A DNA stretch of 64,000 bases, taken from the IMG/VR virus record IMGVR_UViG_3300021255_000031, one strand, 5' to 3'. Source of the stretch: a virus. Lineage: Duplodnaviria > Heunggongvirae > Uroviricota > Caudoviricetes. The translations under genes and the position numbers were made by a program. The notes beneath the pieces were generated by a model, which saw nothing but the letters and a program-made list of their open reading frames with translations, did not search any database and had not been told where the DNA came from. Shown here piece by piece: positions 4,107-57,687 of this stretch (its first letter is position 1; each line of letters opens with the position of its first letter).

Positions 4107-4155
4107 AGCGTTGCCTTTCTGGTTTGTTGTTGTTTTCCTTCAACTTTGTGATTAG

Positions 4156-21844: not shown

Positions 21845-22008
21845 GTAGATATTTAAAAGCTGGAAACTCCTAAAGCCAAAATACTACAACTTATTACTCC
21901 AATATAAGTGAATGTGCGAAAGCGGAAAAAAGTTTTTGGATGATTGCATGGCGAGAGCCTAAACAATTACAAATGGACAATCAGCGACCAATTATGGAGG
22001 AATTAATT

Positions 22009-23079: not shown

Positions 23080-23988
23080 TTGGAAAGTCTCAGTATCTGG
23101 TCAGGCAACAATAAAGAAGCTTGGCTAGACTCGCGTCGTTTAAATAAATGCAGAAAATTATTAAAATGTGAAAGGAAGGCACAAGAAAATTTAGTTAATC
23201 AAAATACCTACTATATAATGAGCTGTGATATTGGTCGTTATAATGCCAATACTGCAATTATGGTTGCTAAAGTAATTCCTCAAGCCGACCGTCATCATAA
23301 AAATATAATTTATACAGAAGTTATTCATGGCGCAAACTATATCGTCGAACAGGCTCCACGAATAAAGAAATTAATACAGTTGTATAAACCACGCGAGGTG
23401 GTTATTGACGGAAACGGCCCCGGCATTGGACTTTTAGATGCTATGGTATTACCTTCTGTTGATCCAAAGACAGGAGAACAATTCCCGGCTTATTATGTAT
23501 TTAATAATGACCATCATTTACCGCCGCAATTAAAAAAAGAGACAACCGAGCCCAAGCCAGCTTTTAACGCCATTATTTATGATATTAAAGCGGGCGCAAA
23601 TAATGATGATGAAATTCATTCTAGCTTCTTTTCTCAAATAAATAACGGCTCCGTATCTTTTTTGGCAAATGAACGAATAGTAAAAGATAAACTATTATCT
23701 ACGAAAAAGGGACAAAGAATGACAAACTATGATCGTAGGGTATATTTAATGCCATATGAGATGACATCTCGACTTATGGATGAATTAAATAACCTGCGCC
23801 TGAAACCAACTGGCGTACAAAATCAATTTAAAGTTGAGAGAATTTCTCGTTCCTATGAGAAAGATAGATTTTCAGCGTTAGAGTATCTACTTTATCGAAC
23901 AAAATATTATGAAGATAAGGATATACAGGCACATAAAAAACGGAACCTAAAAAATTATGGTTTTTTTAGCCCAAAGAAAAGGGGGTGA
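23080..23988 (+). CDS. terminase large subunit, nuclease domain (separate ORF or exon 2)
   Basis: RNase H-like motifs YYIMSCDIGR and VVIDGNGPGIG typical of TerL nuclease domain. Confidence 0.7.
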   Translation: MESLSIWSGNNKEAWLDSRRLNKCRKLLKCERKAQENLVNQNTYYIMSCDIGRYNANTAIMVAKVIPQADRHHKNIIYTEVIHGANYIVEQAPRIKKLIQLYKPREVVIDGNGPGIGLLDAMVLPSVDPKTGEQFPAYYVFNNDHHLPPQLKKETTEPKPAFNAIIYDIKAGANNDDEIHSSFFSQINNGSVSFLANERIVKDKLLSTKKGQRMTNYDRRVYLMPYEMTSRLMDELNNLRLKPTGVQNQFKVERISRSYEKDRFSALEYLLYRTKYYEDKDIQAHKKRNLKNYGFFSPKKRG

Positions 23989-32103: not shown

Positions 32104-33063
32104 ATGGCTGTTAATATTTTTGATAAGTACGGCATAAAAGAAGTTGCTAATGTATATTTTGAAGCTCTTGATGACGATAGGGCTGCTGGTGTATATGCTG
32201 GCGACATCGTACTATTTTTGGATACTTTAAAGGTATCTACTATTGAGACAACCGCCGAGACCGCCGATGCTACTGGTGGTTGGGGCAACCCAAAACTAGT
32301 ATCTTGGGACTATGGTAAAGAAATTACCGTAACTCTTGAAGATGCTCTAATGAGTCTTGAGTCTCTACGTTTCATGTTAGGTGGCGCAATTAAGCGTCCT
32401 ACTACGACAGATTCTGTTGTTGTACGACACACTGAAGAAGTTGTATGTACTGCTGGCGGTGTTGTGCCAAAGCCCAAAGACCATCTAACCAATGACGTAT
32501 TGACTCCTACTGCTAAACCCGGACATCCTATTCGTCTTATTAACCTCACTACTGGCGCTCGTACCCAGTTGGTTGCGCCCGAAGGTGGCACCGTAACGAT
32601 TGACGGAACTAAAGCAATTAATTTTGTCAATCCTCACATGCTTGCTAATGAGACTAATAATACCCAGAAGACTGCTGAAAATGACCACGTGCGTATTTTC
32701 TGGGAAGAAATTGTTACAAGCGAATCAGCGGCTGAAACTGCTATTGAAGTAACTATTTCTCCTAGCACTTTCCCTGGCACTTATAAAATTGTAGGAGACA
32801 CATTCATGAGGTCTGAAAAGACTGGTAAAGATGAGCCCTTCCAGTTTATTATTGGTAAAGCTAAGGTACAGTCTGAGGTAACTATTACTTTGGAGGCCGA
32901 AGGTGACCCATCTACATTTGAAATGACTCTAAGTGTGCTACGTTCTACTAACGATGACGGCGCGAATGAAATGATGAAGCTTGTTCGTTATTCTCTTGGC
33001 GCGGATGAATCTGAAGAAACTGGTAATGACTATGGTTCTTTATCCAGTGGTTCTATAGGTTAA
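32104..33063 (+). CDS. major tail (tube) protein candidate
   Basis: 319 aa with the same expression-type codon bias as MCP; stem-loop 33074-33098 downstream; two genes before tape measure. Confidence 0.5.
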   Translation: MAVNIFDKYGIKEVANVYFEALDDDRAAGVYAGDIVLFLDTLKVSTIETTAETADATGGWGNPKLVSWDYGKEITVTLEDALMSLESLRFMLGGAIKRPTTTDSVVVRHTEEVVCTAGGVVPKPKDHLTNDVLTPTAKPGHPIRLINLTTGARTQLVAPEGGTVTIDGTKAINFVNPHMLANETNNTQKTAENDHVRIFWEEIVTSESAAETAIEVTISPSTFPGTYKIVGDTFMRSEKTGKDEPFQFIIGKAKVQSEVTITLEAEGDPSTFEMTLSVLRSTNDDGANEMMKLVRYSLGADESEETGNDYGSLSSGSIG

Positions 33064-33073
33064 TAGATATTAT

Positions 33074-33105
33074 GAGCTAGGGCTCTAAGCCCTAGCTCTT
33101 ATTAT
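33074..33105 (+). terminator. stem-loop GAGCUAGGGC-UCUA-AGCCCUAGCUC + UUAUUAU after major tail gene
   Basis: 11-bp stem. Confidence 0.5.
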
Positions 33106-33114
33106 GAGGTAAAT

Positions 33115-33981
33115 ATGAGAGACGAGTATTTTGGAGTAAAAGAATTATATGAAGTAGCATTAAGGGCTAAGGTTCCTATGAAATTCGGCTCTCGTTATAT
33201 AGAAGAACAGGAACCGGTTTTGTATTTTGAAAATGTTAGTATTTCTATGCTAACAGAACGTAATTCTCCACTTATGGCGCGAGGAGGCTGGGCTAACTTG
33301 CCTAGAGTAATTTGGGAAGACCGTTCAGAAGTGCAATTTACTTTTTCTGAAGGTATTATGTCCTCTATAAGTATGGGAATATTGTTAAGCGCAAACGTAG
33401 GAGAAAATAAAAAAGAAGCACCATTATTGGCGCCAAAAAGAGAAGGGCCATTTGAATTAAATAGTGATAATCAATTATTTTTGGAACACTGGCCCGTTGA
33501 TATTGATAAAAAGAAAACTTTTATTTTTGAGTATGACCGTAATGTAGCTCAAAAAAAAGTTTATGGAAAAAGAATACATGGGAAGATAGACCCATTTGAT
33601 ACTACGCAAGAAAGACCTTGTATAGAATTATATGAAGATAAGGATTTAACTGTTTTAGCAGATGCAACGAAGGAGTATATTGTAGATTACTATTATGAGT
33701 ATGATAATGAAGCTTTAATCTACACTATTCAAAAGGAGAGATTCAATGGATTATTTACTCTTGAGGGTAAATTTTATTCCAAGGACGAAAATGAGGGCAT
33801 AAATTATACAAATTTAATTTATATGCCTAAAGTAAGAGTTGTAAGCGATATAAGCTTACGCTTGGGAGAAAGGGCTGACCCAACTGTATCTGTATTTAAT
33901 ATTATTGGTTTGCCAGAATCTACCAATAATAATAAAAATTTAATTTTGGAAATTACGCGTTTGGGCGAAGATATAGAATAG
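33115..33981 (+). CDS. tail assembly chaperone candidate
   Basis: Immediately upstream of tape measure gene; intrinsic terminator 33981-34017 follows. Confidence 0.35.
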   Translation: MRDEYFGVKELYEVALRAKVPMKFGSRYIEEQEPVLYFENVSISMLTERNSPLMARGGWANLPRVIWEDRSEVQFTFSEGIMSSISMGILLSANVGENKKEAPLLAPKREGPFELNSDNQLFLEHWPVDIDKKKTFIFEYDRNVAQKKVYGKRIHGKIDPFDTTQERPCIELYEDKDLTVLADATKEYIVDYYYEYDNEALIYTIQKERFNGLFTLEGKFYSKDENEGINYTNLIYMPKVRVVSDISLRLGERADPTVSVFNIIGLPESTNNNKNLILEITRLGEDIE

Positions 33982-34017
33982 CCGCTGCCAAGTTTTTGGT
34001 GGCGGCTCTTTTTTTTA
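33981..34017 (+). terminator. intrinsic terminator GCCGCUGCCAA-GUUUU-UGGUGGCGGC + U8 before tape measure gene
   Basis: stem with G-U pairs then UCUUUUUUUU. Confidence 0.6.
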
Positions 34018-34047: not shown

Positions 34048-37000
34048 ATGGCTGAGGGTATAGTAATAGATGTTAGCGCGCGAGTTACTGGGTATGAGCA
34101 ATCATTGGCTCAATTAAAAGCAAGTTTTGACCATTTGAATCCAGGAGCAAGCATTTCAAAAAGTATCACTCGTGCATTGCAAATTGCAGAGAGCAAGGTA
34201 AAATCTTTAGGAAATAATTTAACTCCTAAGATTACAAGTAATTCACAATTAGATAGATTTACAGAAAAAATAAATAGCACAAGCGATGCAATTCAACACG
34301 TTGCCAGCTTGCTTGGACAAATTAGTTCTGATGATTTGGATTTGTCTTCTTTTTCTGGTGAATTCGATGAATTAACTCAAAAAATACGTGAATTAGAAGC
34401 GTTATTAAATAAAAATATTACAGAACAATTTAGAGAGAAAATTACGGCTGCAATAAGTGGAATTAAAATTGATGATAATGCCACACCTGCGGCTATCTTT
34501 CAACAATTAGAGGAAGCGTCTAAAAAGGCTGCAAAAGCAGTTGTTGCCGCTGAGCGTGAAATGGCTGAAGCAGAGAAACAATTAGCTACGCGGCAACGAA
34601 GACTTACAGAGCTTCAAAGTAATGCGGCAAATAATCCAACGGCATTAAATAATCAGGTGCATAAGATTGCCGATGATTATGTAGAAGCTATGAGTTCTTT
34701 GCGTGAGCAAATGACAAATGGATTAAATACATTATTAGGGCCGGATAGTGCGGACGCTTCAAAATTATTGGAGTCATTTTTTGGTGGTTTGAATCCAGAG
34801 GATGGCGCGGATGTAGCTAATCGTATTTATCAATTACGACAGTCTATTACTACCGCAATGGGTAAATCTGCGGTTAAACCAACTGAAATATATCAAGCAT
34901 TATTTGGTAAGAATTTAAGCCCACAGGCAATGAGTGAATATTTACGAGCTCACATATTGCCAAAGAATTTAGACGATGTAAAAGCTCAATTGATGGCAAC
35001 TTTGCAATCAATATCTACACATCTTACCTCTACTCAAATTGGGCAAGTTTCTGGGTTGATTTCTAGTAATGATATTGATGGTGCGCTGCAAACAACGTTA
35101 GACCTTATTACTAAAGCTTATGAAACAATACAGGCTAAAATACTAAAAAAGCGCCAAGAAGTTGCGGAAGCTTTAAATAAAAGAGACAACGCTCAGCAAG
35201 AAGTAAATAATGCTACCGCTCAATCACAACAAAGTGTTGATAATGAGCAAATAGCACGCGAACAATTAGCACAAGTAATGCAGCAGAATCAAGCATTACA
35301 AGAGCAGAATGATTTATTAAAGCAGGAATTAGCTAGACAAGTAGAAGATAAGACTGTAAATATAAAAAATAGAGCAGCAGATACAAAAGAAGAAGCCGAG
35401 AATCTTAAACTTGCAAGTGAGGAAGCGGGACAATATAATCAACAATTAGATAAAATAGATAATAGAAGGCAACTAGTTAATCATATTGAGGGCATCGCGC
35501 AGCGTTGGTTTTCTATTTATGCAGCGGTGCGAATGACAGGAAACGCGATTCGTTCAGTCGTTTCTACATTGGAAGAGCTGGATAAAACAATTACCAACAT
35601 CGCCATTGTTACTGATATGACACAAGATGATTTGTGGAGCCAGATGAGCACCTATACCGCGATGGCAAAGGAATATGCCGTTTCGATTTCTGGTGTATAT
35701 GAAGTTTCACAACTTTTCTATCAACAGGGCTTACAAACTCGTGATGTTATGACCTTAACTGGCGAGACATTAAAAATGGCTCGTATTGCAGGGTTGGATT
35801 ATGCAAAAGCTACCGACTTTATGACTAACGCTCTTCGTTCATTTAAAATGGAGAACGAGGAAGCTGGCCGAGTTACAGATGTTTATTCTTCTTTGGCAGC
35901 CAGCGCAGCAATTAGCGTTTCTGAGTTAGCAAATGCTATGAGTAAAACGGCTTCTTCTGCATACGCGGTAGGTTCTAGTATTGAAGCTACTTCTGCTATG
36001 ATTACAGTTATGGTAGAAGCTACACGTGAATCCGCTGAAAACATCGGTTCAGCTATGAAGTCTATCATTTCTCGTTACGGTGAAATGACTAGTGATCCAT
36101 TAAAGGTTGTTGATAGCGAAGGCGAAGAAATGAGCCTGAACCGTGTTGATAAAGCCTTGCAGACCGTTGGAATTACATTACAAGATGCTAATGGACAGTT
36201 CCGTAACTTCGATGAAGTAATTATGGAATTGGCTGAAAAATGGAATACTATTGATAAAAATACTCAGCGCTATATTGCCACCATCATGGCTGGTAACAGA
36301 CAACAGTCTCGTTTCTTAGCCCTAGTATCTTCTTATGACCGCTTAAGAGAATTAACAGCCACCGCAATGGAAAGTGAGGGTGCGGCTACTTCTCAGTTTG
36401 AAAAATCATTAGATGGTATTGAAGCTAAAACGCAACAGCTACAAACTAGTTTGCAAAATTTATATACTAGTGCTGGACTGCAAGACCTTTATAGCTTTAT
36501 TTTAACTATTGGCAGCAATGTATTAGATTTTTATAATGATATTGCGGCTGCTTTTGGAAGTGGATTTAAAGGGCTACTTGCTGCTCTGGTTACTTTTAGC
36601 GCACAATTTTATAATGCAGCTAGAATTGTAATGCGTGTAGTAGATTTAGTTAAGACCCACTTTATTGGTGCTAATAAACAAGCTACAGCTAGTTCTGCAG
36701 TGGAAAGTAAAAATCGTGCAAATACGGAGTTATATACTGCTGAAGAATTGAATGCAAAAATAATTGAAGTATGGCGTAAGGCGGAAGAAGAGAAAACAAA
36801 AATTACAACTGAAGAAGCTGAGCGCCGTGCGAAAATTTTATTGAATGCAGAGAAAAACAATTCGCAACAAAAAGGCAGTGGGTTGAAAAACTGGTTGAAA
36901 AAGAACGGAAGTATGATTGGTTCTACCATTGCCGCAGGCTCTAGCATCGTCGGGGGAATGCTAACCGACTCAAAATGGAGTGCTGGTGTGAGTGGAGCAG

Positions 37001-40000
37001 GAGGTCTAATTGGTGCAGTAATCCAAGGTGCATCTGGAGACATTGCAGGGGCCATAATGACTGCTATCAGTAGTATTGGGCCATTAGTAAGCTTAATAAC
37101 CCAATGGGCTACTATAACCGATGAATTAGCGGAAGCTCAAGAAAAATATAACAAATCATTAGAGGAAGCAGCTAAAAAACGGACAGAAGCAACAAAAATT
37201 AATAATGAAGCAGAAGCTTTAAAGAAATTAAGTGAAAGACTCGAAGAAGCTAAAGAAAGACAATATGATAGCGCTGAAGCAAAACAAGAATATTTGTCAG
37301 TAATGAAAGAAATAGCAGAGCAATATCCGTCTTTAGTAGCTTATTATGATAGTGAAAACAATGCAATTGTAGAAAATACGAAAGCATTAGATACTTATAT
37401 CAAAAAACGCAAGCAAGAAGCAGCGATAGCAGAAAGAGAAGCTATTATTGCTGAGGCCGGTGCAGATAGTAGATATGGTGTAACTATTACACCAGCGAAA
37501 CAGGTATACGAAGGAAAGACCAGCGGTCGTGATGTTAGCAGACTTCATAATCAAGAGAATGATATAATCCAGGGGAAATTTTCTACCGTTGGCGCTGCAA
37601 TGAATGCTGCTATTTCAGAATATTTGTATTATAATACAGGTTTTCTTGCTGATGTTGAAACATCTAATCTTTTAGGATTTGATTATAATAATGATACAAA
37701 TAAAACGCTGTTTAAAGAAAAAGCAAAAAATGCTACAAAGGAAAAAACTGACCTTAATATCAATAAAGCAGTTCAAGTTGCATTAGATGTTTTAGTAAGT
37801 AGATTAGAAGCTGCTCAGAAAGCAGGAACCTCTTTAGAGGAAGTCTATACCAAATGGGAAAAAGAGTGGTTAGCAACGATAGATGGGTATAATAGAGAAA
37901 ACAGTTTATTCTATGAGATTTTTCAATATGCCCAGCAATATATTACTCATGCAGATACTTTTAAAGCCTCTCGTGAAGATTTAGTTCATCGAGCCGCCGT
38001 TTCTTTTGTAAAATCATTAGACTTAGAAGGCTATACTGATTTACAAATACAGCATTTAGTAGGACAATTTGAAAGTAGTTTTAAAGAAACTAATCCAGAT
38101 GTGCTAAATATTTCAACTTCTCAAGAAGATTTTCAAAAACGGTTAAATACTTTTTGGGGACAACAAATTGAGTCTAGTGGAAATTACACTCTCAATGCCC
38201 TTGAATATTATGGGACAATTGATAAAAAGACAATCGCACAAATAGACAAAGTATTTAACAATCTTGCAAAATATAGTAGAAATAGTCTTGAAGCTTTGAT
38301 AGATTCTATTGGAATTACAGGGCCGGCTGCCAAAGATTTATTAAAAGAATGGGATACAGAAAATGGTCTTGCTGTAGAGAATGCTAAAAAGGCTTATAGT
38401 AATCTTCTTGGAAGTAATCAAGAATTGAGTCAAGAGCAAGCAGATTTTATAGACTCATTGGCACCTACCTATTTATCAACCTATATAGAACAATTGCGAG
38501 CCTTTTCAAGTAATGGTAGTGGTGGAACTCCTACCTCTCTTAACATATCACCTATTCAAAAGATATGGGAAAAAGCTCAAGGGAATGATGAAGCACTTCA
38601 AGTCTTACAAAAAAGCGATTTAACTACTATTACTGGTATTTATGATGCGGCGAAGGAAATGGAAAAGTTAGGCAATTCTGACTTAGCCACATCTATAACG
38701 AAACTTTCAGAATATATACAAATAAATCTTAATACAGAACTTCAAACATATGTTGATACATTACAGGGGAGTTTCTCTGATTTAGAAGCAGCATTAAAGA
38801 ATGCTTCTTCTGGTATGGATGTTGATACTATGCTTGCTATGGCGGATAGGCTTGGAAAGAGTATTAGCGATTTTTCATTTAAAGACGGAAAATATTATTT
38901 TAATGATATTAATGCTATTTATGATTCATACTCTAAAGCTTCAGACGCTCTAGAAAAACAATTAAGTGAAATACAGTTGGTTGAAGATACTGATAACTAT
39001 GAAGAATTATCAGCAGAAGCCAATGAATTAAAAAATAGAATAAAAGAATTAAGAACCTATACAGATGATTATCTTAAAAAAACCTTCTTGCTTCAAACAG
39101 GACAAATAGATAAATTTTTAGAAGAGCTCAATGTTGGAGCAGAGGTTAAGCAAGAAATAGCTCATGGCGATTATACTCATATTCCTCCTGAGTATATTTC
39201 TGCTGTGACATCCGCCGCTGGAAAAACATATAATGAAATTTATGATATTTTAATTGGTCAAATTAATGGCTCTTCTAAACAAACTACAATAAAAGCAACA
39301 GAAGTAAATTTAGATTTATTAAAGAGTTTAGGTCTAGCTGGTAATGGAGTAGTCGCAGGAGACGAACTACTTATTAATTGGGCTAATGCTACAGCAGACC
39401 AAATTAATTCTTTACGCCAAATCATTTTAGAAGATGGTGATATAGGAGACGATGAACGCAATAACTTATTGCGTTCAATTTATGACAGTAAATTTAAAAA
39501 TAATCGTACAGAAGCTTTATTGCAAGTTATTAATTCTTATACTAACTTTGACCGAAGCGTTGCGGAAGCTTTTGCACTTTCTATCGGTGAGACAGTTGAG
39601 GGGCTTGAAAAGAAAGGTATTATAGCTCTTAACCAAATTACTGGTGCCTATTCTATGACATTCGATGTCTTACAACAACAAATTGAAGAGGCTAAGGCCA
39701 ATGGAGCAAGTGATACAGAATTAGCTAAATTAAAAGATGCTATTTCTACTTTATATAGCGGCATAGCTAATAATATTGTAAAAGCACTAGAGGGCTCCTT
39801 AAGTTCTACAGACGCTCAAGAGTTATCTAAATCAATCGAAGATATTTTTGGTCTAAAACTTGATTTTTCTAGCACAGCTAAAGGTCTTGGTCTTTCTAAT
39901 GAAATTGCTGCAATATTGTATCAACGCTTAATGGCAATTGATGGGATTGCCGCACGCCTAGTTTTTGATGCTTTATACGATTCTTTGACGAAATCAGAAG

Positions 40001-43000
40001 CCACTTGTCAAAATATTTCTACTACTATGCGGCATTTGGCGGAAGTTCAAAAAGAAATTAACAACCTACAAAAACAAAATAATGATGCTGATAAAAAACG
40101 CGTACAATCTCTAAAAGACCAGTATAAGCTTTTATCTCAGATTGCTTATAAGCAATCTATGGATTCTAATTCATTTAAATTTTTAGATAGGTCATTACCA
40201 ACTGGTTATGAGAGCCCTATCAATTATTTACAATCTGCTGTTAAATCATTTGATATTATTAATCAAGCTAGTGAAGATGGCCACATTGCATTAACAGATT
40301 TCTATAACATTGTTATGGAAATGAGTAATGTTGCCGCGATTACGGGTCAGACTATTACTGTATTCGGGCAAACTATTACAGGCGATTTAGTACAAACTTC
40401 TGAACTCATTCAAAAAGGTTTTAAAGTATGGTCTGATATTGATGGCACAGCTTCTATTGGAGCAGAGGCAGCCGCGAGTATCGGATTAAACTTTGAAGCT
40501 GGTGTTGAAGAAGGACAGGGTAGTATTGAATCTGGTATTAAGGCATTTGCAAAACAGCAAATTGAAATGCTTGATGCAATGATTAATGCTTTGGAAGGAG
40601 TCGCGGCTTTAGAAGCGCTAGAGACTGGAACTGGAGATAAGAGTTTAGGCTTAGGAGAGGTTCTTGGTAATTTTTATGAGACTGATGAAAAAGGAAATTC
40701 TACAGGTAACATATCCCAGAAGGCTCAAGACTGGATAAATTCTTTTAAAACAGTTATTGATGGTAATGAAAAGTTAAAGGCATTCGTAGATAAAATTAAA
40801 GTTAGTGATGAAGATCTTATTACATATTTGCAGGATGAAAAAGTTACTGCCGAGCAAAAGAAAAATGTCCTTTCACGCTTATATGAACTAATGAAGAGCA
40901 ACGACTGGGGTGACGACCTTTCACAAGTTGCAGATAAGTGGGCAGAACAAGGATTTAATTTTGATGCTAAATCTGGATTCTTGAAATTCTCGGAGCCAAT
41001 AGAAACGGATGTTCCTCTTACATTAAAAGTTGTACTTGAGGGTATTGATGCCGAAGGATTGAAAGGTTTTAGTGATTTGTTAAAGAAATTACTACAAGTT
41101 AATCCAAATGGTGATATTGACCTTACTGGTACAATGGGTAAGAATCTTGCTTATACACTAAAACTCGCTCGTACTAAAAATGGAGATAAAGTCACTCTTA
41201 CAATTGATGGTAAGGAGCCATATGAAAGTGCGCTTTTTGATGCAACAAATAGTGGTGCATTAACAGCGCAAGTTACAGATGTTATCAATCGAGCAGCGAA
41301 AGATTTAAAGATTTTTAATATTGCTGATACTAATTTTACAGTTACTGGAGTAGGCACAAATACTTATATAGCAACTGAAGATGGCGATACGCTAGAGTAT
41401 CATAAAACTATCAATGGCAGCAATCCGCCTATTATTACTATTTCTGGCACTTCTATAAAAGGTGGATATATTTCAATTGCGTCTGCAATAGAAACTTATA
41501 AAAAAGAAAAACAAAAACAAGCTGCAATTAATCAAGACACATTAAATACTCAAACTAACGAAACCTTTACTGGCATCGAATCTGGTTCTGGTTTAGGATA
41601 TGAGATTCAATTTAAGGATAACGGCGCCACCGCTGCAATTAAAATTGGCGGTAAAGAGATTGCTACCTGGTCTGATAATGATGGTACTGGCTTAACTTTA
41701 AATAGTGCGATAGAACGTGCATTTGCTTTATATCAACAGCAATATGGCAGTAATTCTGTAGAGATGCCATCTTTACCCTCTGGTAATAAAGAAATTATTC
41801 CAGAAGATAAAGGAATTACGCTTGGATATAAAATTACTCCCAATGAGAATGGCGGCTATAGCGTAACTTTTGGCGAGGGTAGCAAGTGGGGAACCCCTGC
41901 CGCATGGAATGGCACAAAAGAAGGATTACAAAGTGTTCTGACGCAAGCGGCTATGCATTATTATACAGAGCACGGTTCCGGTTCCATTCCTGAAGGATTT
42001 GACCCGTTAGGACAATCTATAAGTGGAACAGTGGTATCTGCGGAAGATGATGGTAATACTTTACAATATTATTTAAGTTTTGATAAGAGTATTGATAGCG
42101 GACGTATTACTATCGGAAGCGGTTCTACATATGTTTCTATGGGATGGTCTGGAAATCATGCCGAAGGAATACAAACAGCTTTACGTATTTATCATAATAG
42201 AATAGCATCAGCTGCGAAAGAGCCTTCTTTTGATAGTGATAATATTGAAATATATGATAATGATAATGGTATAGTTTATTCTTTCGCGGCTAATGAAAAA
42301 GACGGTCAATTTTATCTGCCGGGTGGAACGGCTCCTGTTAGTCAAGCAGAATTTATAGCTGGAATTCAAACTTGGGTTGCTACAAATCGTGGTACAATAG
42401 TCGAAGAGCTAAAGGATACAGGTTTAACTCAGGTTGAAGTGAGTAGCGGACCAGAAGGAACCAAGGTTAATGCCGTTGGTGACTATTGGGCTGCGGATGG
42501 CACCGGTATAGGATATTATTTAAGTCTTAAGACTAAAGAAAATGGCAATGTTAATGGTTATTCGACCGGGACAATTAAAAATGCAGTTGATGCTACTAAG
42601 AACTGGTTAAAATCTCTTGAAGAAAAGTATGGTAGCGGTGAAGCTATCGCGGACGCACTTGGTGCAGGTAAATTAGTAATTAATCCAGAAACTAATCAAG
42701 TTACTATGGAAGAAATTCCAATAGCCAATGGTTATAAGCTAGATTATAATTTACAGATTACCACCACAGGTGATGCGACAGCAACTCAAGAGGCTTTAGA
42801 AGAAAAAATAGCTACGGTAAAACGATTACAGGCAGCATATAAAGATTTAGAAGCTTTAAAAGTTGAACAAAATGCTACTGGAATAGAGGGCAGTGCCATT
42901 TTTCCTTCTAAATATTTTTCCTTGGATTTGGGTCTTATCGTTAAAATCACTGATAGTGGAGTTAAGGTAAGCGGTAATGTAAGCGGTTTAGCATCTACTT

Positions 43001-46000
43001 ATGATAGTATCGATGACTTTATGAATGCCCTTATCGATTTTTACGAGCAGAAATTGGGGCAGACGGTCGATATTAATAATACTACTCAAGTTGAGAATGA
43101 TTTATCCACTGGTGGGAATGAAACGACTAATGCAACTCCTTACACGCATGGTGGAACTGCAACTAATGTTGTTTATCCTGATGACCAAAGTGATGCCTTA
43201 TATAATCAATATCCTGATAAAAATGTTGAATCTGAGTTTGAGGAAGAAATTTTAGATGAAGTAACTCAAATTGCTGAAGAAAAAACTAATCCGACTACCG
43301 AAGGCACACAAGCACCTGATACTGAAAATGCTCTTACCGATGAAGAGATTATAGCGGATTTAAATACTAAAGTGGGTGATGCTTTAAAACTTTGGGCAGA
43401 CAAGAGCGAAGAAGCTGATTTAGCTAAATCAGAGGGAAGCGATGATGCTGACCATCTTGAAGAAGAAGCACAGGCATTACACCAATTAGTATTAACTCTT
43501 ATGGATTCTCAAGACATTTTAAATGCCGGACAGTCACAAGAGCAGCAACAAACGCAAGATTTATCTCAAGACCAAATAAAATATTTATATGATAATCAAG
43601 TTTCTAACGATAGTATAGATACAATTATTGGACAATTGGAAGCTAGCAAAAGTGATGATGAAACAACAAATGCTCAAATACAACAAACTATAGACTGGTT
43701 GAGTGCGTTAAAAGAAGGCAATTCTAATCAGCTAGAAAAAATGAATCAAATCGCTGCGAAGACACGCTTGCCATATACCCCGACTGAATTAAAAGCAGGC
43801 TTAGACGGAATTAGTATTCATGGTGATTTGTTTGCAGGCGGCTGGCAGTTAGTTCGCCCTGATGGTGCAGGTGGCTATACACATGAGCCTGGTGAGGGCT
43901 CAGCAAAAGGTAATGCTCAAGCCAAAGGTACTCTCATGGGTGAGCTTGGCCCAGAGCTTTATGTTACTGGCGGGCATTATTATATTGCTGGTCAAAATGG
44001 TGCAGAGTTTGTTGATTTGCCAGATGATGCAATTGTATTCAATCATTTGCAGACTCAACGTCTAATGTCTAATGGCTCTACCGGTCGCGGACGTGCAATA
44101 ACTAGTGAGAAGAAAGCTACATCTTATGCAACCGGTAATGTGGCTATGGCTTCTGCTTCTGAAACCGTTGCTAAATTGCGTGAGCTACGAGCTCTTTGGG
44201 AATCTCTATTAAATCAAGATTTCAAGAGTCTTACTCAAGCCGCGGGTGGTGGCGGTGGCGGCGGTTCTGAAGAAGCTAAAAAGTTTTTGTATGACCTAGA
44301 CCGCTGGTATAATTTACTACGACAGATTGAAAAGGTTGAAGAACAGATTAATTACCAGCAAGCATTACGGCAAAATATGCAATCTGGCTATAAGTATGTG
44401 CGTAGCCTAGAATATGAACTTTCATTATTGGAAAAAGAAGCATCCAATTATGAGATGCTGGCTAAATTGCAAGAAAGTTATTATCAAGCTCGTAAGGCTG
44501 ACCAAGAACGGTCTATTTATAGTTATTTCTTCAATTATGATGATGAAGGCTTGATGCAGTATCGAGACGAAGGCTTCCATCTTGTCGCAGATTTAAATCG
44601 TACTGATGAAACCGGACAGGCTGTTTATACTTCTGAACAACAAATAGCTGCTATTACAAATGCATTAAAGGCTGCTGGCTATGATGCAGATTTAATCTCT
44701 AATACGCTTTACTATGATGAAGCTGGAGAAAAGCTAACAGATTCGGCAGATATAATTCAAAATTTCTATGACAAATTTGATGGCTGGATAGAAGAGATGG
44801 ATGCAGAGTACGATAGCTTTAATGAATATCGTACCAAGACTCAAGAAGCTCTTACAAAACAAAATGAAATTCTTGAAGAATATAGAGAATTGCAAATCGG
44901 TTTAGAGAAACAATTACTTGAAGCCATTGAAAATAGAGAACAAAAAATTATTGATACATTACAAGATGAAATGGATGCATTGAAAGATGCTTCTGACAAG
45001 TATCTTACTGGATTGACGGATGCCTTAAATAAAGAGCAACAAATGTATCAACAAAATGAAAAAGATACTGAGTTATTGCGTTTGCAACGTCAATTGGCTA
45101 TTCTACAAAGGTCTGGCGGTTCTGCTAGTGAAATTAAATCTTTACAAGACCAGATAAATAGTAGGATGCAAGATAGATATTTTGAAGCTCAGCAAACCGA
45201 AATTGATGCAATAAAAGAAGCTTCTGATAAGCAATTAGAAATGATGCAAAATCAAATCGATATACTTACTGAAACTTTAGAGTATCAAAAAGAAAACGGA
45301 TTGCTTTGGGCAGAAGTATCTGAAAAGATGAATACTTGGAAGCCTGAAGAACTTGCTAGTTTTGTGCAAGAAAATAGTCCAGAGTTCGCGGCCGCAAGCC
45401 TAGAAGAACAGACTAAAACAATGCAAGAATCGATTAAAGAGTTTGAAAAATGGTATGAATATATTCACAATTATCGTGCCTTTAATCAATTCTACGATCA
45501 AATTGATACCGACACTTTGAAAAATGAGTATGGTATTAATACTGATGATGAAACTATGCTAAAGCGCGCCCGAGCGACCGCAAAGACCGCATATCAAAAA
45601 GAGTATCAACGGCAAATCGATGAGGAAGGAGCAGATAGCGACACCGCACATAGATTGGCAGAAGAAGCTGCATTAAGGGCGTTAAGAGAAGATTACAGTT
45701 TGCATCCTGCTATGGGGCCCGGACGCGGTGGAATTGATACTAGTGGTGCGATTGGTAGTGGTAGTGGAACTGGTGGATTAAGTACATTTAAAGAAGTCCA
45801 AGCCAAATGGAATGAAACAAAATATAAGTTTAATAACGCAGTAAGTAATTATAGTAAGACGCCATTAGGTTTCCGGAATTGGTATGATGCTAATAATAAA
45901 TGGGGTATTACTTGGGATAATTTGCAAGAAGCGAGACATAAATCAGAGTTTGGCGCGAATGTTTATGCAACAGCATTTGGAGAGTGGCAAGCATATACAA

Positions 46001-46476
46001 ACAATTTTGAAAAAAATAGAAAGTCTCAGCAGGATAATATCACCGCTCTATACAATGAATTAAAACGCTTATTAAAGGGTTATCCTGAAGCATTGAAGGG
46101 CTATACATTGCCTGCGTTGCCGACATTCGATATTGGCGGAATCGTTGATAAAACTGGCCCGGCTTTGGTTCATGCGAAAGAGGGCGTTATAACTTCAGAA
46201 CAAGTTGATATGCTTCGTAAGCTTACTATTACTTCTGGTAAGCAGTCTCTTGCTTATCAAATGGCAGAACTTAATGAAGTATATAGTAATCTAGTAGCGC
46301 CTCTTACACATCTTGCAGACAATTCAACCAATGGTTTGGTAATTGAAAATGCAACAGTTAAGATGAATGTACAATCCATCGCAAATGATTATGATGCTCG
46401 TCGTGCTGGAGAACAGGCTCTTGATGAAATGATGCGTATAGCAAGAAAAACCGGAGCACAAAGTATAAGGAGGTAA
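34048..46476 (+). CDS. tail tape measure protein, 4142 aa
   Basis: N-terminal TP901-type TMP core (AIVTDMTQDDLWSQMSTY...VMTLTGETLKMARIAGLDYAKATDFMTNALRSF...AISVSELANAMSKTASSAY); long coiled coils; internal repeats; GGGGGGG at 44241-44265. Confidence 0.75.
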   Translation: MAEGIVIDVSARVTGYEQSLAQLKASFDHLNPGASISKSITRALQIAESKVKSLGNNLTPKITSNSQLDRFTEKINSTSDAIQHVASLLGQISSDDLDLSSFSGEFDELTQKIRELEALLNKNITEQFREKITAAISGIKIDDNATPAAIFQQLEEASKKAAKAVVAAEREMAEAEKQLATRQRRLTELQSNAANNPTALNNQVHKIADDYVEAMSSLREQMTNGLNTLLGPDSADASKLLESFFGGLNPEDGADVANRIYQLRQSITTAMGKSAVKPTEIYQALFGKNLSPQAMSEYLRAHILPKNLDDVKAQLMATLQSISTHLTSTQIGQVSGLISSNDIDGALQTTLDLITKAYETIQAKILKKRQEVAEALNKRDNAQQEVNNATAQSQQSVDNEQIAREQLAQVMQQNQALQEQNDLLKQELARQVEDKTVNIKNRAADTKEEAENLKLASEEAGQYNQQLDKIDNRRQLVNHIEGIAQRWFSIYAAVRMTGNAIRSVVSTLEELDKTITNIAIVTDMTQDDLWSQMSTYTAMAKEYAVSISGVYEVSQLFYQQGLQTRDVMTLTGETLKMARIAGLDYAKATDFMTNALRSFKMENEEAGRVTDVYSSLAASAAISVSELANAMSKTASSAYAVGSSIEATSAMITVMVEATRESAENIGSAMKSIISRYGEMTSDPLKVVDSEGEEMSLNRVDKALQTVGITLQDANGQFRNFDEVIMELAEKWNTIDKNTQRYIATIMAGNRQQSRFLALVSSYDRLRELTATAMESEGAATSQFEKSLDGIEAKTQQLQTSLQNLYTSAGLQDLYSFILTIGSNVLDFYNDIAAAFGSGFKGLLAALVTFSAQFYNAARIVMRVVDLVKTHFIGANKQATASSAVESKNRANTELYTAEELNAKIIEVWRKAEEEKTKITTEEAERRAKILLNAEKNNSQQKGSGLKNWLKKNGSMIGSTIAAGSSIVGGMLTDSKWSAGVSGAGGLIGAVIQGASGDIAGAIMTAISSIGPLVSLITQWATITDELAEAQEKYNKSLEEAAKKRTEATKINNEAEALKKLSERLEEAKERQYDSAEAKQEYLSVMKEIAEQYPSLVAYYDSENNAIVENTKALDTYIKKRKQEAAIAEREAIIAEAGADSRYGVTITPAKQVYEGKTSGRDVSRLHNQENDIIQGKFSTVGAAMNAAISEYLYYNTGFLADVETSNLLGFDYNNDTNKTLFKEKAKNATKEKTDLNINKAVQVALDVLVSRLEAAQKAGTSLEEVYTKWEKEWLATIDGYNRENSLFYEIFQYAQQYITHADTFKASREDLVHRAAVSFVKSLDLEGYTDLQIQHLVGQFESSFKETNPDVLNISTSQEDFQKRLNTFWGQQIESSGNYTLNALEYYGTIDKKTIAQIDKVFNNLAKYSRNSLEALIDSIGITGPAAKDLLKEWDTENGLAVENAKKAYSNLLGSNQELSQEQADFIDSLAPTYLSTYIEQLRAFSSNGSGGTPTSLNISPIQKIWEKAQGNDEALQVLQKSDLTTITGIYDAAKEMEKLGNSDLATSITKLSEYIQINLNTELQTYVDTLQGSFSDLEAALKNASSGMDVDTMLAMADRLGKSISDFSFKDGKYYFNDINAIYDSYSKASDALEKQLSEIQLVEDTDNYEELSAEANELKNRIKELRTYTDDYLKKTFLLQTGQIDKFLEELNVGAEVKQEIAHGDYTHIPPEYISAVTSAAGKTYNEIYDILIGQINGSSKQTTIKATEVNLDLLKSLGLAGNGVVAGDELLINWANATADQINSLRQIILEDGDIGDDERNNLLRSIYDSKFKNNRTEALLQVINSYTNFDRSVAEAFALSIGETVEGLEKKGIIALNQITGAYSMTFDVLQQQIEEAKANGASDTELAKLKDAISTLYSGIANNIVKALEGSLSSTDAQELSKSIEDIFGLKLDFSSTAKGLGLSNEIAAILYQRLMAIDGIAARLVFDALYDSLTKSEATCQNISTTMRHLAEVQKEINNLQKQNNDADKKRVQSLKDQYKLLSQIAYKQSMDSNSFKFLDRSLPTGYESPINYLQSAVKSFDIINQASEDGHIALTDFYNIVMEMSNVAAITGQTITVFGQTITGDLVQTSELIQKGFKVWSDIDGTASIGAEAAASIGLNFEAGVEEGQGSIESGIKAFAKQQIEMLDAMINALEGVAALEALETGTGDKSLGLGEVLGNFYETDEKGNSTGNISQKAQDWINSFKTVIDGNEKLKAFVDKIKVSDEDLITYLQDEKVTAEQKKNVLSRLYELMKSNDWGDDLSQVADKWAEQGFNFDAKSGFLKFSEPIETDVPLTLKVVLEGIDAEGLKGFSDLLKKLLQVNPNGDIDLTGTMGKNLAYTLKLARTKNGDKVTLTIDGKEPYESALFDATNSGALTAQVTDVINRAAKDLKIFNIADTNFTVTGVGTNTYIATEDGDTLEYHKTINGSNPPIITISGTSIKGGYISIASAIETYKKEKQKQAAINQDTLNTQTNETFTGIESGSGLGYEIQFKDNGATAAIKIGGKEIATWSDNDGTGLTLNSAIERAFALYQQQYGSNSVEMPSLPSGNKEIIPEDKGITLGYKITPNENGGYSVTFGEGSKWGTPAAWNGTKEGLQSVLTQAAMHYYTEHGSGSIPEGFDPLGQSISGTVVSAEDDGNTLQYYLSFDKSIDSGRITIGSGSTYVSMGWSGNHAEGIQTALRIYHNRIASAAKEPSFDSDNIEIYDNDNGIVYSFAANEKDGQFYLPGGTAPVSQAEFIAGIQTWVATNRGTIVEELKDTGLTQVEVSSGPEGTKVNAVGDYWAADGTGIGYYLSLKTKENGNVNGYSTGTIKNAVDATKNWLKSLEEKYGSGEAIADALGAGKLVINPETNQVTMEEIPIANGYKLDYNLQITTTGDATATQEALEEKIATVKRLQAAYKDLEALKVEQNATGIEGSAIFPSKYFSLDLGLIVKITDSGVKVSGNVSGLASTYDSIDDFMNALIDFYEQKLGQTVDINNTTQVENDLSTGGNETTNATPYTHGGTATNVVYPDDQSDALYNQYPDKNVESEFEEEILDEVTQIAEEKTNPTTEGTQAPDTENALTDEEIIADLNTKVGDALKLWADKSEEADLAKSEGSDDADHLEEEAQALHQLVLTLMDSQDILNAGQSQEQQQTQDLSQDQIKYLYDNQVSNDSIDTIIGQLEASKSDDETTNAQIQQTIDWLSALKEGNSNQLEKMNQIAAKTRLPYTPTELKAGLDGISIHGDLFAGGWQLVRPDGAGGYTHEPGEGSAKGNAQAKGTLMGELGPELYVTGGHYYIAGQNGAEFVDLPDDAIVFNHLQTQRLMSNGSTGRGRAITSEKKATSYATGNVAMASASETVAKLRELRALWESLLNQDFKSLTQAAGGGGGGGSEEAKKFLYDLDRWYNLLRQIEKVEEQINYQQALRQNMQSGYKYVRSLEYELSLLEKEASNYEMLAKLQESYYQARKADQERSIYSYFFNYDDEGLMQYRDEGFHLVADLNRTDETGQAVYTSEQQIAAITNALKAAGYDADLISNTLYYDEAGEKLTDSADIIQNFYDKFDGWIEEMDAEYDSFNEYRTKTQEALTKQNEILEEYRELQIGLEKQLLEAIENREQKIIDTLQDEMDALKDASDKYLTGLTDALNKEQQMYQQNEKDTELLRLQRQLAILQRSGGSASEIKSLQDQINSRMQDRYFEAQQTEIDAIKEASDKQLEMMQNQIDILTETLEYQKENGLLWAEVSEKMNTWKPEELASFVQENSPEFAAASLEEQTKTMQESIKEFEKWYEYIHNYRAFNQFYDQIDTDTLKNEYGINTDDETMLKRARATAKTAYQKEYQRQIDEEGADSDTAHRLAEEAALRALREDYSLHPAMGPGRGGIDTSGAIGSGSGTGGLSTFKEVQAKWNETKYKFNNAVSNYSKTPLGFRNWYDANNKWGITWDNLQEARHKSEFGANVYATAFGEWQAYTNNFEKNRKSQQDNITALYNELKRLLKGYPEALKGYTLPALPTFDIGGIVDKTGPALVHAKEGVITSEQVDMLRKLTITSGKQSLAYQMAELNEVYSNLVAPLTHLADNSTNGLVIENATVKMNVQSIANDYDARRAGEQALDEMMRIARKTGAQSIRR
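41340..42670 (+). repeat. at least 5 tandem about 55-65-aa Gly/Tyr-rich repeat modules inside tape measure protein (approximate bounds)
   Basis: recurring G..Y.h.....G.....G......A......YG pattern, e.g. GIGYYLSLKTKENGNVNGYSTGTIKNAVDATKNWLKSLEEKYGSG / QYYLSFDKSIDSGRITIGSGSTYVSMGWSGNHAEGIQTALRIYHNRI. Confidence 0.5.
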
Positions 46477-46482
46477 AGGGGT

Positions 46483-48063
46483 ATGGAAGTATTACAAGGT
46501 ATAGAAATAGAGAGAGCGGCCGCGAGCCGCTCTCAAACCTATGAAGCAACACATAACGGGGCAGGCCAGCGCCTGCCCTATATGTATAGATCTTTTATTA
46601 GTTTTTCTTATGGTGGAAAAAATATAGAGGATTTTGGTTTAATCGCGGTTACTAATGGTGACCGTTTATCTCATGCTGTTTATGCTGATTTTAATGATAA
46701 TATTACTGATTCTAATGTGTTGGACGGGCAACTCTATTGGAGCACTCATTTTAAAGCTAATGCTTGGGATTTAACCTTGGCAACAGATGGAATAACAGAA
46801 CGACAATTAGATGAATTTAAGCACTGGTTCGCGCCGGGCAAAGTAAAAGAATTAATCTTAGCAGAGCGCCCCAATCGCGGAATTATGGCACGAATATCTA
46901 AGGCTCCTTCTTATTCGATGTTACCTTTTGAGAGTGATACTACTATAACAATAAATAGCACTGAATATAAAACAAAAACTACCCTTTATAAAGGCGAGAT
47001 TACGATTAATTTTGTTATGGATGACCCATTTTGGTATTCATTAAATAATATTCTAGATTTAAAAATTAATGATATTTATACTTCTCAATGGATTGATGCA
47101 AATGGACAACAAGTTAATGTCCTTAGTAGTCCAGATGCATTAAAAATACTAGCTGAAGATGGTGTGCTTACTTCTTCTCTTTTTGATTCTAGTGCTCCAG
47201 AAATTCTTACTGGTGATGGTGAGTTATTAACAGTTGATTTGTCTATGAATTCTTATGGCTCTCGCGTGAATGGCGCTCGTGCCGATGAAGGACATATAGC
47301 TTATATCATTTCTGGTAGTGGCCACGGGATAAATATTGGAGACGAAAATAATCCGGGATATTTTTATTATGGTGGTACGGCACCATGCGCGCCGATATTA
47401 AGTTTTACTTTAATTCCACAATTAGGACAAGATGGTTATATTATTTCTCCTAACAACGATATTGGTAATGCAAATAATGAAAATTATTATAATATACTCA
47501 CCATTGAGAGTTTAGATAAAAAAGAATTTAAATTTACTACGCCAAGCATATATACCGGCTTTAATCAAGTAATTAAAATTTTTAAAGATGCTGGTGATGG
47601 AGTAGCTTGGGAAGACGTGCGCGCGCGGTTAAGAGATAATGTTAAACATTATGCACCAAGGCAGTATGGTATGGCTGTTTTAGAGAGCATGCGTTCTGGC
47701 GTCAGTACAACTACTACAATTTTAAACAACATGATAATTAAAATGTCTGATTTTATAAAAGATACAAACGGACAAATTGTGCCTGCGGCTTTTACTATCA
47801 ATAGTAAAAATGGGCAGGCGGTTGCTTATATAAAATATAGAAATACAAATTTAGATTCTCCTGCTATGATAGAATCCGAGGAAAATGTCGGAGATATGAT
47901 TCTTTCAAATTACTTGTTAATAGAAGAAAGAAATTATCCAAATGCAATAGGACAAATACAAATATGGACGGAAGAGCATCCAGAGTATAGCCATAAAGTT
48001 TATTGTGATATTGCTGGCGGGTTACAAAATTTTGATATACAATATAAATTTTTATATCTATAA
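46483..48063 (+). CDS. distal tail protein (Dit) candidate
   Basis: 526 aa directly after TMP, conserved siphovirus order. Confidence 0.5.
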   Translation: MEVLQGIEIERAAASRSQTYEATHNGAGQRLPYMYRSFISFSYGGKNIEDFGLIAVTNGDRLSHAVYADFNDNITDSNVLDGQLYWSTHFKANAWDLTLATDGITERQLDEFKHWFAPGKVKELILAERPNRGIMARISKAPSYSMLPFESDTTITINSTEYKTKTTLYKGEITINFVMDDPFWYSLNNILDLKINDIYTSQWIDANGQQVNVLSSPDALKILAEDGVLTSSLFDSSAPEILTGDGELLTVDLSMNSYGSRVNGARADEGHIAYIISGSGHGINIGDENNPGYFYYGGTAPCAPILSFTLIPQLGQDGYIISPNNDIGNANNENYYNILTIESLDKKEFKFTTPSIYTGFNQVIKIFKDAGDGVAWEDVRARLRDNVKHYAPRQYGMAVLESMRSGVSTTTTILNNMIIKMSDFIKDTNGQIVPAAFTINSKNGQAVAYIKYRNTNLDSPAMIESEENVGDMILSNYLLIEERNYPNAIGQIQIWTEEHPEYSHKVYCDIAGGLQNFDIQYKFLYL

Positions 48064-57685: not shown

Positions 57686-57687
57686 CC

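Follow-up and report, generated by a model that had tools for sequence, protein, structure and literature searches.

A modular tape measure protein of 4142 residues in an uncultured phage from a clade with extreme tape measure gene sizes

The stretch of DNA analyzed here, referred to as the window, comprises 64,000 nucleotides (nt) of the Caudoviricetes record IMGVR_UViG_3300021255_000031 in IMG/VR and contains, at 34048..46476 on the plus strand, a gene for a tape measure protein (TMP) of 4142 amino acids (aa). The gene is one open reading frame (ORF) of 4142 codons plus a stop, with no internal stops; its ATG at 34048 lies 13 nt downstream of an AGGAG sequence, and GC content and GC skew are even over its whole length. 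A TP901-type core had been proposed for the N-terminal region from the letters alone, and profile searches recover it: PF10145 (PhageMin_Tail) matches aa 538-746 (E=1e-28, 101 bits, cutoff 33.2), TIGR01760 (tape_meas_TP901) matches aa 497-810 (E=5e-32, 111 bits, cutoff 28.8), and 10 PHROG TMP families match within aa ~350-1939, with PHROG TMP profile 4211 reaching aa 1939. A search of the PDB with the whole TMP sequence came back empty, and megablast against cultured phages gave no match.

The architecture of the protein was mapped from profile hits, hydropathy, two AlphaFold2 models and conservation against 30 other TMPs of the clade to which the window belongs. Hit counts per segment are among these 30 TMPs, and ratios of nonsynonymous to synonymous divergence (dN/dS) are against two close relatives, the 167-kb IMG/VR contig 3300031994_000013 (L001) and a contig from ENA (L009). 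From the N-terminus to the C-terminus, the segments are as follows.

34048..35535, plus strand: N-terminal region, aa 1-496, helix-prone by helix propensity, dN/dS ~0.10 against both close relatives
35536..36477, plus strand: TP901-type core, aa 497-810 (PF10145/TIGR01760), conserved in 27-29 of 30 clade TMPs
36541..37110, plus strand: hydrophobic, Gly-rich membrane-type segments at aa 832-852, 954-973 and 986-1021, from a Kyte-Doolittle scan and charge-free stretches
37345..39447, plus strand: variable helix-prone spacer, aa 1100-1800, with indels and 53-66% aa identity to the close relatives, few or no clade matches
39448..40947, plus strand: second clade-conserved block, aa 1801-2300, matches in 24-29 of 30 clade TMPs
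41116..43059, plus strand: nine diverged modules, aa 2357-3004, ~50-70 aa each, with 3-4 beta strands followed by one helix (AlphaFold2 pattern, pairwise-score test)
43060..43767, plus strand: acidic Gln/Thr-rich low-complexity linker, aa 3005-3240, lineage-specific by composition and 0 clade matches
43912..44064, plus strand: small beta domain, GTLMGELGPE...DAIVFNHLQT, aa 3289-3339 (GELGPE at aa 3298), strands at residues 56-83 of the AlphaFold2 model, predicted local distance difference test score (pLDDT) ~70-85
44245..44265, plus strand: poly-Gly tract of seven residues (G7), aa 3400-3406, codons GGT GGT GGC GGT GGC GGC GGT, predicted disordered by AlphaFold2
44266..45714, plus strand: long-helix module with a small alpha/beta subdomain, aa 3407-3889, with helices up to 102 residues long (pLDDT mostly 85-97)
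45715..46092, plus strand: Gly/Ser linker and variable slot, aa 3890-4015, a Trp/Tyr-rich helical cassette with 25-40% identity to close relatives
46093..46473, plus strand: C-terminal anchor, aa 4016-4142, FDIGGIVDKTGPALVHAKEGVITSEQ ... NDYDARRAGEQALDEMMRIARK, conserved in 27 of 30 clade TMPs

Almost no matches to aa 1-400 were found in the other clade TMPs, so the protein is largely lineage-specific upstream of aa ~400. The core is 99-100% identical to that of the close relatives at a synonymous divergence (dS) of 0.21-0.26 (dN/dS 0.01-0.03), and the hydrophobic segments that follow it are patchily conserved, with matches in 2 of 30 clade TMPs for the interval aa 801-1000 and in 24 of 30 for aa 901-1100. 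In the spacer, dN/dS rises to 0.30-0.38. The second conserved block contains no Pfam domain above cutoff. At the acidic linker, the first 50 residues of the C-terminal AlphaFold2 model have pLDDT below 50, and the linker is replaced in L009 by a longer, different sequence.

The single ORF is maintained in close relatives. L001 contains a syntenic single TMP ORF of 4146 aa between flanking genes that are 97-99% identical to those of the window. In L009 the gene is broken after ...KNTQRY by an insertion of ~1.2 kb encoding an HNH_3/NUMOD4 endonuclease, and the frame picks up exactly at IATIMAGN..., the insertion falling between CAGCGTTAT and ATTGCA (...QRY and IATI...); with the insertion removed, the protein has ~4181 aa. 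No group I intron model of Rfam matched this insertion, the only TMP-core insertion tested, or the window. Because these relatives encode 4146 aa (L001) and, across an exact junction, ~4181 aa (L009), the 12.4-kb ORF is a real single gene and not an assembly artefact. The original prediction had read it as one ORF and had named a splitting frameshift or assembly error as the finding that would overturn it; the independent assemblies, which include 28 clade genomes, show intact ORFs once the L009 insertion is set aside.

Conserved motifs were used to find such genomes in IMG/VR, and they yielded 57 loci with the C-terminal module and 54 with the core; alignment A1 proved too diverse for finding loci, and the narrower alignment A2 served instead. 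Core and C-terminal loci were joined for 31 contigs, with every overlap consistent, and 28 of the 31 have a single ORF of 3539-5995 aa across both. Six of the 28 use the standard code (4146, 4363, 4537, 5129, 5158 and 5995 aa), and the other 22 read through 64-178 in-frame TAG codons. In the remaining three of the 31 contigs the ORF is interrupted, by an insertion of ~1.1-1.2 kb in two and by a 4.5-kb gap in the third. At 4142 aa, the window TMP is shorter than the clade median (about 4950 aa). It is exceptionally long, as had been described, in comparison with typical phages, but not with the rest of its clade or with Thermus phage P74-26 (5006 aa).

The most distinctive segment of the protein is the array of nine modules. 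In a single-sequence AlphaFold2 model of low confidence (pLDDT 45), nine consecutive units of three to four strands and one helix appear at the same positions. Self-BLASTP and leave-one-out hidden Markov models did not detect the module repeats. When the modules were compared pairwise, however, the 36 local scores had a mean of 28.2 against 21.9 ± 0.68 for shuffled sequences of the same composition (z=9.3, with 0 of 200 shuffles as high), and control helical segments in the same test gave z=-0.7; the module boundaries were set by eye, which may inflate the z-score of the modules somewhat. The repeats anticipated by the original prediction, at least five Gly/Tyr-rich units at aa ~2430-2870, are thus real by this test, but they number nine, extend over aa 2357-3004 and resemble one another less than had been described.

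The array has few relatives. No homolog of aa 2300-3100 was found in a collection of 5.8 billion proteins; a search of the module region against 1.84 billion representatives returned the close relative P0052 and one weak match only; and a profile of the nine modules matched nothing in PDB sequences or Pfam. The modules are absent from the 30 other clade TMPs, and the region is confined to three genomes. Three candidate likenesses were set aside: P0053, an Ig-type repeat protein (E=8e-9 over ~70 residues), was dismissed as uninformative; the similarity to PUR/Whirly-like repeats found by Foldseek (human PURA, E=0.019, probability 0.57) was taken as a likeness of topology only, having been obtained from the model with pLDDT 45; and the AP2-domain matches of the same poor model (E at least 0.02) were not counted as evidence. 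Modules 3-9 are 97% identical in aa sequence to those of L001 at dS 0.17 (dN/dS 0.07), with dN/dS of 0.23 against L009, and the first two modules are divergent (dN/dS 0.45-0.62). Because modules 3-9 keep this identity at such a dS, the array is most probably a functional, lineage-specific insert and not junk.

Beyond the acidic linker, the GELGPE domain, poly-Gly tract, long helices and anchor follow one another in this order, and the intervals aa 3201-3900 and 4001-4142 match 27-30 of 30 clade TMPs. The GELGPE domain belongs to no known family and was found in 57 IMG/VR loci, and its motif columns are invariant in alignment A2. A hinge of seven glycines had been placed at 44241-44265; the tract is real and conserved, but it starts 4 nt later, at 44245. 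A Gly-rich tract follows GELGPE in all of the at least 18 clade TMPs listed and in alignments A1 and A2, mostly at a distance of 103-112 aa and at 155-162 aa in two. In three relatives (P0016, P0051 and IMGVR 3300028591_000102), a second domain of the GELGPE type occupies the anchor position or lies near it, a hint that the two motifs are interchangeable, although a comparison of their profiles fell short of significance.

The long-helix module has 51 homologs and matches in 29-30 of 30 clade TMPs; it is 99% identical in aa sequence to that of L009 at dS=0.36 (dN/dS 0.014) and only 45% identical to that of L001. In the C-terminal AlphaFold2 model, built from a 51-sequence alignment (mean pLDDT 72), the 736 residues after the G7 tract are ~75% helical. 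The coiled-coil region of about 750 aa that had been proposed to follow the hinge agrees with the model in length and in its long helices, but a coiled coil as such is not shown by it, the model being a monomer. With the 903-aa C-terminal model, Foldseek retrieved generic long-helix proteins and no enzyme fold from the PDB, and 'minor tail proteins' of gut siphoviruses from BFVD (E=1e-8 to 1e-6); cultured phages gave no match when searched by tblastn with the C-terminal 903 aa. No lysozyme, peptidase or other enzyme matched in Pfam, NCBIfam or the PDB anywhere in the TMP, even at relaxed thresholds, and the lytic domain suggested for the C-terminal third was found by neither profile nor fold searches.

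The slot of the window matches no Pfam domain and has no clade matches. In relatives the corresponding position, ~110-150 aa before the C-terminus, is occupied by PG_binding_1 (as in P0001), SH3_3, CW_7, choline-binding repeats or LysM. The receptor or cell-wall role raised by the original prediction gains indirect support from these domains, but the window slot itself matches no known domain; the decoration role raised with it is unlikely for a protein inside the tail tube. The anchor resembles, by inspection, the C-termini of the TMPs of Bacillus phage Tsamsa and Lactococcus phage 949, FDTGGYTGDW..MAMLHKKE.VLNA.

Within the TMP gene, segments drop to 43-75% nt identity even when the genomes compared share 97-99% identity elsewhere. 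The window, L001 and L009 share segment variants in different combinations; the slot cassette, for example, is common to L001 and L009 and is not that of the window. The total lengths of the three TMPs are 4142, 4146 and ~4181 aa, respectively. At the level of sequence, these combinations demonstrate that TMP segments have been exchanged by recombination between close relatives, each variant remaining under purifying selection.

The TMP gene stands where such a gene is expected, between a tail tube gene and a gene for a distal tail protein (Dit)-like product. The neighboring features are listed below.

32104..33063, plus strand: tail tube protein gene (phrog_2729, E=6e-48; the L009 homolog carries Pfam YomU_Tube)
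33115..33981, plus strand: gene immediately preceding that of the TMP and weakly paralogous to the tube protein (phrog_2729, E=2e-14), conserved in this position in L002 and L009
33980..34007, plus strand: terminator-like hairpin just upstream of the TMP start, a 12-bp stem followed by a T run (consensus match only)
46483..48063, plus strand: Dit-like gene immediately downstream of the TMP gene (phrog_33, E=2.5e-10), syntenic in L001, L002 and L009

In order, the portal gene (23985), head/connector genes, tube gene and tube paralog precede the TMP gene, and two large tail genes encoding 1454 aa (48089-52453) and 722 aa lie beyond the Dit-like gene. The tube protein is 33-37% identical to the products of Tsamsa-group and 949-group genes, one of which is annotated 'major tail protein', and its ortholog in L009 carries Pfam YomU_Tube, YomV and YomW. 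The product of 33115..33981 is possibly an assembly factor. The tube gene is followed at once by a strong terminator-like hairpin (33074-33098), and a second one (33980-34007) immediately precedes the TMP start; the pair would be consistent with expression falling in steps between the tube protein and the TMP.

The portal is 25-30% identical to portals of large Bacillota siphoviruses, and the relatives of portal and tube proteins (25-37%) are Tsamsa-group Bacillus phages, the Lactococcus 949 group, Enterococcus phages, Brevibacillus Sundance and gut phage phAss-1. Other products of the window are a phage sigma factor and the anaerobic ribonucleotide reductase NrdD (59587-61821, E=9e-192). The host is probably an anaerobic Gram-positive (Bacillota) bacterium of gut or rumen, because of NrdD, the choline-binding, CW_7, SH3 and PG-binding domains in relatives, and the nearest portal and tube proteins being those of Bacillus, Lactococcus and Enterococcus phages; the phage genome is probably about 165 kb. 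Scans of metagenome and bacterial genome contigs yielded no new close relative and no clue to the host, and ARAGORN found no tRNA in the window.

Several mobile elements were encountered in the window and its relatives. The terL gene of the window looks split into 20927-21844 (phrog_15503 and a weak TerL match) and 23080-23988 (phrog_24618), with an ORF for an HNH endonuclease at 21940-23019 (phrog_559, E=8e-49) between the parts, which suggests an intron or a free-standing homing endonuclease. Beside nrdD, at 56750-58674 on the minus strand, two adjacent ORFs both belong to GIY-YIG homing endonuclease families. The TMP core (PF10145) of many relatives is interrupted, at several different positions, by insertions encoding HNH_3/NUMOD4 (I-HmuI-like) endonucleases (L009:8792-10000 and L002:3500-4975, and also in L012, L015, L016, L061, L063, L065 and L068), of ~1.1-1.5 kb where measured (L002, L009, L012 and L016). 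In L001 the tube gene carries an 814-nt insertion (L001:7452-8264, equivalent to window 32311/32312) encoding a 188-aa HNH_3/NUMOD4/NUMOD1 endonuclease, unlike the tube gene of the window, which is uninterrupted. P0010, a homolog of the C-terminal module, contains the Hint/intein Pfam domains PF07591, PF05203, PF01079 and PF14890, and an intein may be a third kind of mobile element targeting the TMP gene.

Genetic codes also vary within the clade. Most relatives (L019-L062 and L003), as well as phAss-1 (L008), read TAG as sense; the standard code is used by a small number, the window, L001 and L009 among them. When the TAG-recoded TMP genes are called with the standard code, they break up into small ORFs. 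The longest clade TMPs have 5995 aa (standard code) and 5759 aa (TAG as sense), both above the 5006 aa of P74-26, an example being IMGVR_UViG_3300032038_000011 (L070 and L059).

A ruler mechanism is established for the TMPs lambda gpH, TP901-1 and T5 pb2. The ORF product is the tail TMP of a large, uncultured siphovirus-type phage with a tail module of the SPbeta, Tsamsa and phage 949 type, and likely sets tail length in the same manner. A few copies of the TMP would run through the lumen of the tube, anchored at their C-termini in the Dit/Tal tip of the tail, and tube subunits would polymerize along it until the N-terminal end is reached, so that the length of the TMP would set that of the tail. 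On infection the TMP would exit first, and its hydrophobic segments would help to form a passage through the membrane for the DNA. More speculatively, the poly-Gly tract could act as a flexible joint or a processing site that splits the ruler from a C-terminal penetration module of ~85 kDa, which would meet the cell wall first, with the slot perhaps contacting the wall; the nine modules might fold only outside the tube and have a sequence-specific role after ejection.

Tail length can be estimated from the nearest cultured giants. Tsamsa pairs an unusually large TMP (gp226, 3123 aa) with an unusually long tail of 440 nm, or 0.141 nm per residue, and phage 949 pairs a TMP of 3276 aa with a tail of 500 nm, or 0.153 nm per residue; P74-26, with its TMP of 5006 aa, has the longest known phage tail, of nearly 1 µm. 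At 0.141-0.153 nm per residue, the tail of the window phage is predicted to measure about 585-630 nm, a range that includes the roughly 600 nm estimated in the original prediction, or about 490-535 nm should the nine modules contribute nothing. In Tsamsa virions the TMP appears as bands of 280 and 100 kDa, whose ratio would fit a cut near its poly-Gly tract of five residues (G5), 804 residues from the end; the processing idea is put forward because of these two bands, which are its sole support.

Three other explanations of the locus were weighed. That a mis-assembly or missed frameshift has fused separate genes, for example a normal TMP with a downstream tail protein, was at first encouraged by the listing of database homologs of the C-terminal 833 aa at ~500-1450 aa, which resembled a free-standing gene. 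The short homologs proved to be fragments, produced by contig ends, by a scaffold N-gap in L002 and by calling of TAG-recoded genomes with the standard code (L003), and with independent single ORFs over core and C-terminal module in L001 and the 28 clade genomes, uniform base composition and GC skew, and purifying selection on the C-terminal half in the same frame, we put the probability of a fusion close to nil. It is also quite improbable that the nine-module region is selectively neutral filler, for example what is left of a mobile or foreign gene that inserted there and is tolerated, length being all that counts. Its confinement to three genomes, its want of a detectable homolog or known fold and the loose constraint on the first two modules would fit such filler; modules 3-9, however, are held more tightly than the helical spacer against both L001 and L009, and the pattern of strands and helix is maintained in all nine units.

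The remaining alternative concerns how much of the protein acts as the ruler. In this view the ~740 residues after the hinge, or the nine modules, would lie outside the tube as a central tail-tip fiber or a binding array exposed on the surface; the tail would fall well short of 600 nm, and the slot would take part in recognition of the host surface. Conservation of the hinge and of the long helices that follow, the cell-wall-binding domains near the C-terminus of relatives and the swapping of the slot between near-identical genomes, as often happens with receptor-binding modules, are in keeping with this arrangement, as are the 280-nm tail fiber of the related phage phiL47 and an earlier reading of T5 pb2 as both ruler and fiber. 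Against it, in solved siphovirus tips the C-terminus of the TMP is buried in the Dit/Tal hub; the separate downstream tail genes (1454 and 722 aa) could supply fibers; and in Tsamsa and phage 949 the whole TMP, including the region after the poly-Gly, fits the length of the tube at 0.14-0.15 nm per residue. We therefore regard a partial ruler as improbable.

The reading of the protein as a full-length ruler, with its attendant proposals, also has points against it. The tail length is wholly inferred, being known here from genes alone, and the nine modules, which make up ~16% of the TMP, are not helix-prone and may or may not count fully in a ruler. AlphaFold2 modelling covered residues beyond aa 2340, with aa 1-2340 assessed by crude helix propensity. 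Processing at the poly-Gly tract goes back to one gel observation in a distant relative, whose sequence around the tract is not homologous to that of the window. Only one gene (33115-33981) separates the tube and TMP genes, and no canonical frameshifted chaperone pair was identified upstream, where a slippery site was not searched for. An origin of the GELGPE domain as an internal duplicate of the anchor was unsupported (hhalign E=0.11). As to the host, P0011, a TMP fragment of 1454 aa, is listed by NCBI as 'peptidoglycan-binding protein, partial' from a metagenome-assembled genome of Methanobrevibacter sp., a placement that is probably a binning artefact.

A bolder and rather doubtful proposal is that the array represents an undescribed family of small folds within the ruler, under strong purifying selection, which would pass through the lumen as long, sequence-specific, non-helical cargo and, once ejected, refold and act on the envelope of the host or on the DNA that enters. 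Combined with the conserved poly-Gly hinge or processing site, such an array would turn giant TMPs into two-part injection devices and not mere rulers. Within the clade, relatives with TMPs of up to 5995 aa, standard-code and TAG-recoded alike, would then have the longest tails so far predicted for viruses, about 0.85-0.9 µm or more, rivaling that of P74-26.

TMPs are the textbook molecular rulers, and the window TMP and its clade widen their known size range to 4000-6000 residues in gut or rumen phages. The swapping of whole TMP segments between near-identical genomes, with total length kept within ~1%, amounts to a natural experiment, and a non-helical repeat array under purifying selection tests whether all residues count equally in the ruler. 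The module of GELGPE domain, poly-Gly and long helices has no counterpart in cultured phages and is a candidate for the first contact with the thick Gram-positive wall. TMP genes of this clade are routinely fragmented in databases by stop-codon recoding, endonuclease insertions and contig breaks, so that their size is under-reported.

Among cultured phages, Tsamsa and phage 949 offer the closest parallels: their TMPs, like that of the window, have the core at aa ~500-900 as well as the slot and the C-terminal motif, and in all three a poly-Gly tract lies 740-940 aa before the C-terminus. Tsamsa has a genome of similar size (169 kb) and a tube protein ~37% identical to that of the window, and its gp226 has the PF10145 core near the N-terminal quarter, the G5 tract at 804 aa before the C-terminus and a terminal motif like that of the anchor, and, like the window TMP, no embedded peptidoglycan hydrolase domain. 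Only the core aligns, however, at 28% identity; the window TMP is 1019 aa longer; the Tsamsa slot holds an SH3_3 domain ~110 aa before the end, whereas that of the window has no recognizable SH3; and Tsamsa lacks the GELGPE domain, a homolog of the long-helix module and the nine-module array. The Lactococcus 949/phiL47 group (TMP of 3276 aa, tails of 480-500 nm) resembles the window in overall plan and has related tube and portal proteins. In phage 949 a tract of six glycines lies 936 aa from the end, LysM occupies the slot and the C-terminal motif is that of the window anchor, but an SLT lytic transglycosylase stands directly after the poly-Gly, where the window has long helices and no lytic domain, and core identity is ~23%. 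The TMP of Perkons carries Phage_lysozyme2, unlike the window TMP, which has no hydrolase domain (SLT, tail lysozyme or M23).

More distant systems share less. P74-26 has, as is predicted for the window phage, a very long non-contractile tail to go with its very long TMP, but it belongs to an unrelated lineage with a Gram-negative thermophile as host and a metallopeptidase annotation; it was not among the listed phage matches and was not compared directly. TMPs of the TP901-1 and lambda type (~850-950 aa) have the TIGR01760/PF10145 core, hydrophobic segments and gene position in common with the window TMP, which is four to five times longer and has extra conserved and lineage-specific modules; TP901-1 also has a peptidase domain that the window TMP lacks. 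The phAss-1 group, with TMPs of 3149-3209 aa and predicted Clostridia hosts, is distantly related to the clade. The window itself is a member of the uncultured clade from IMG/VR and ENA (57 loci in phages of ~130-190 kb, many of them TAG-recoded), whose TMPs share with it the core, second block, GELGPE domain, poly-Gly, long-helix module and anchor in one ORF. Its aa 2200-3200, which hold the nine modules and the acidic linker, and its slot cassette do not occur in the 30 other clade TMPs, and the window uses the standard code with no in-frame TAG. The window TMP is thus a known kind of protein in a new variant of architecture, from a clade with extreme gene sizes that seem to be under-reported.

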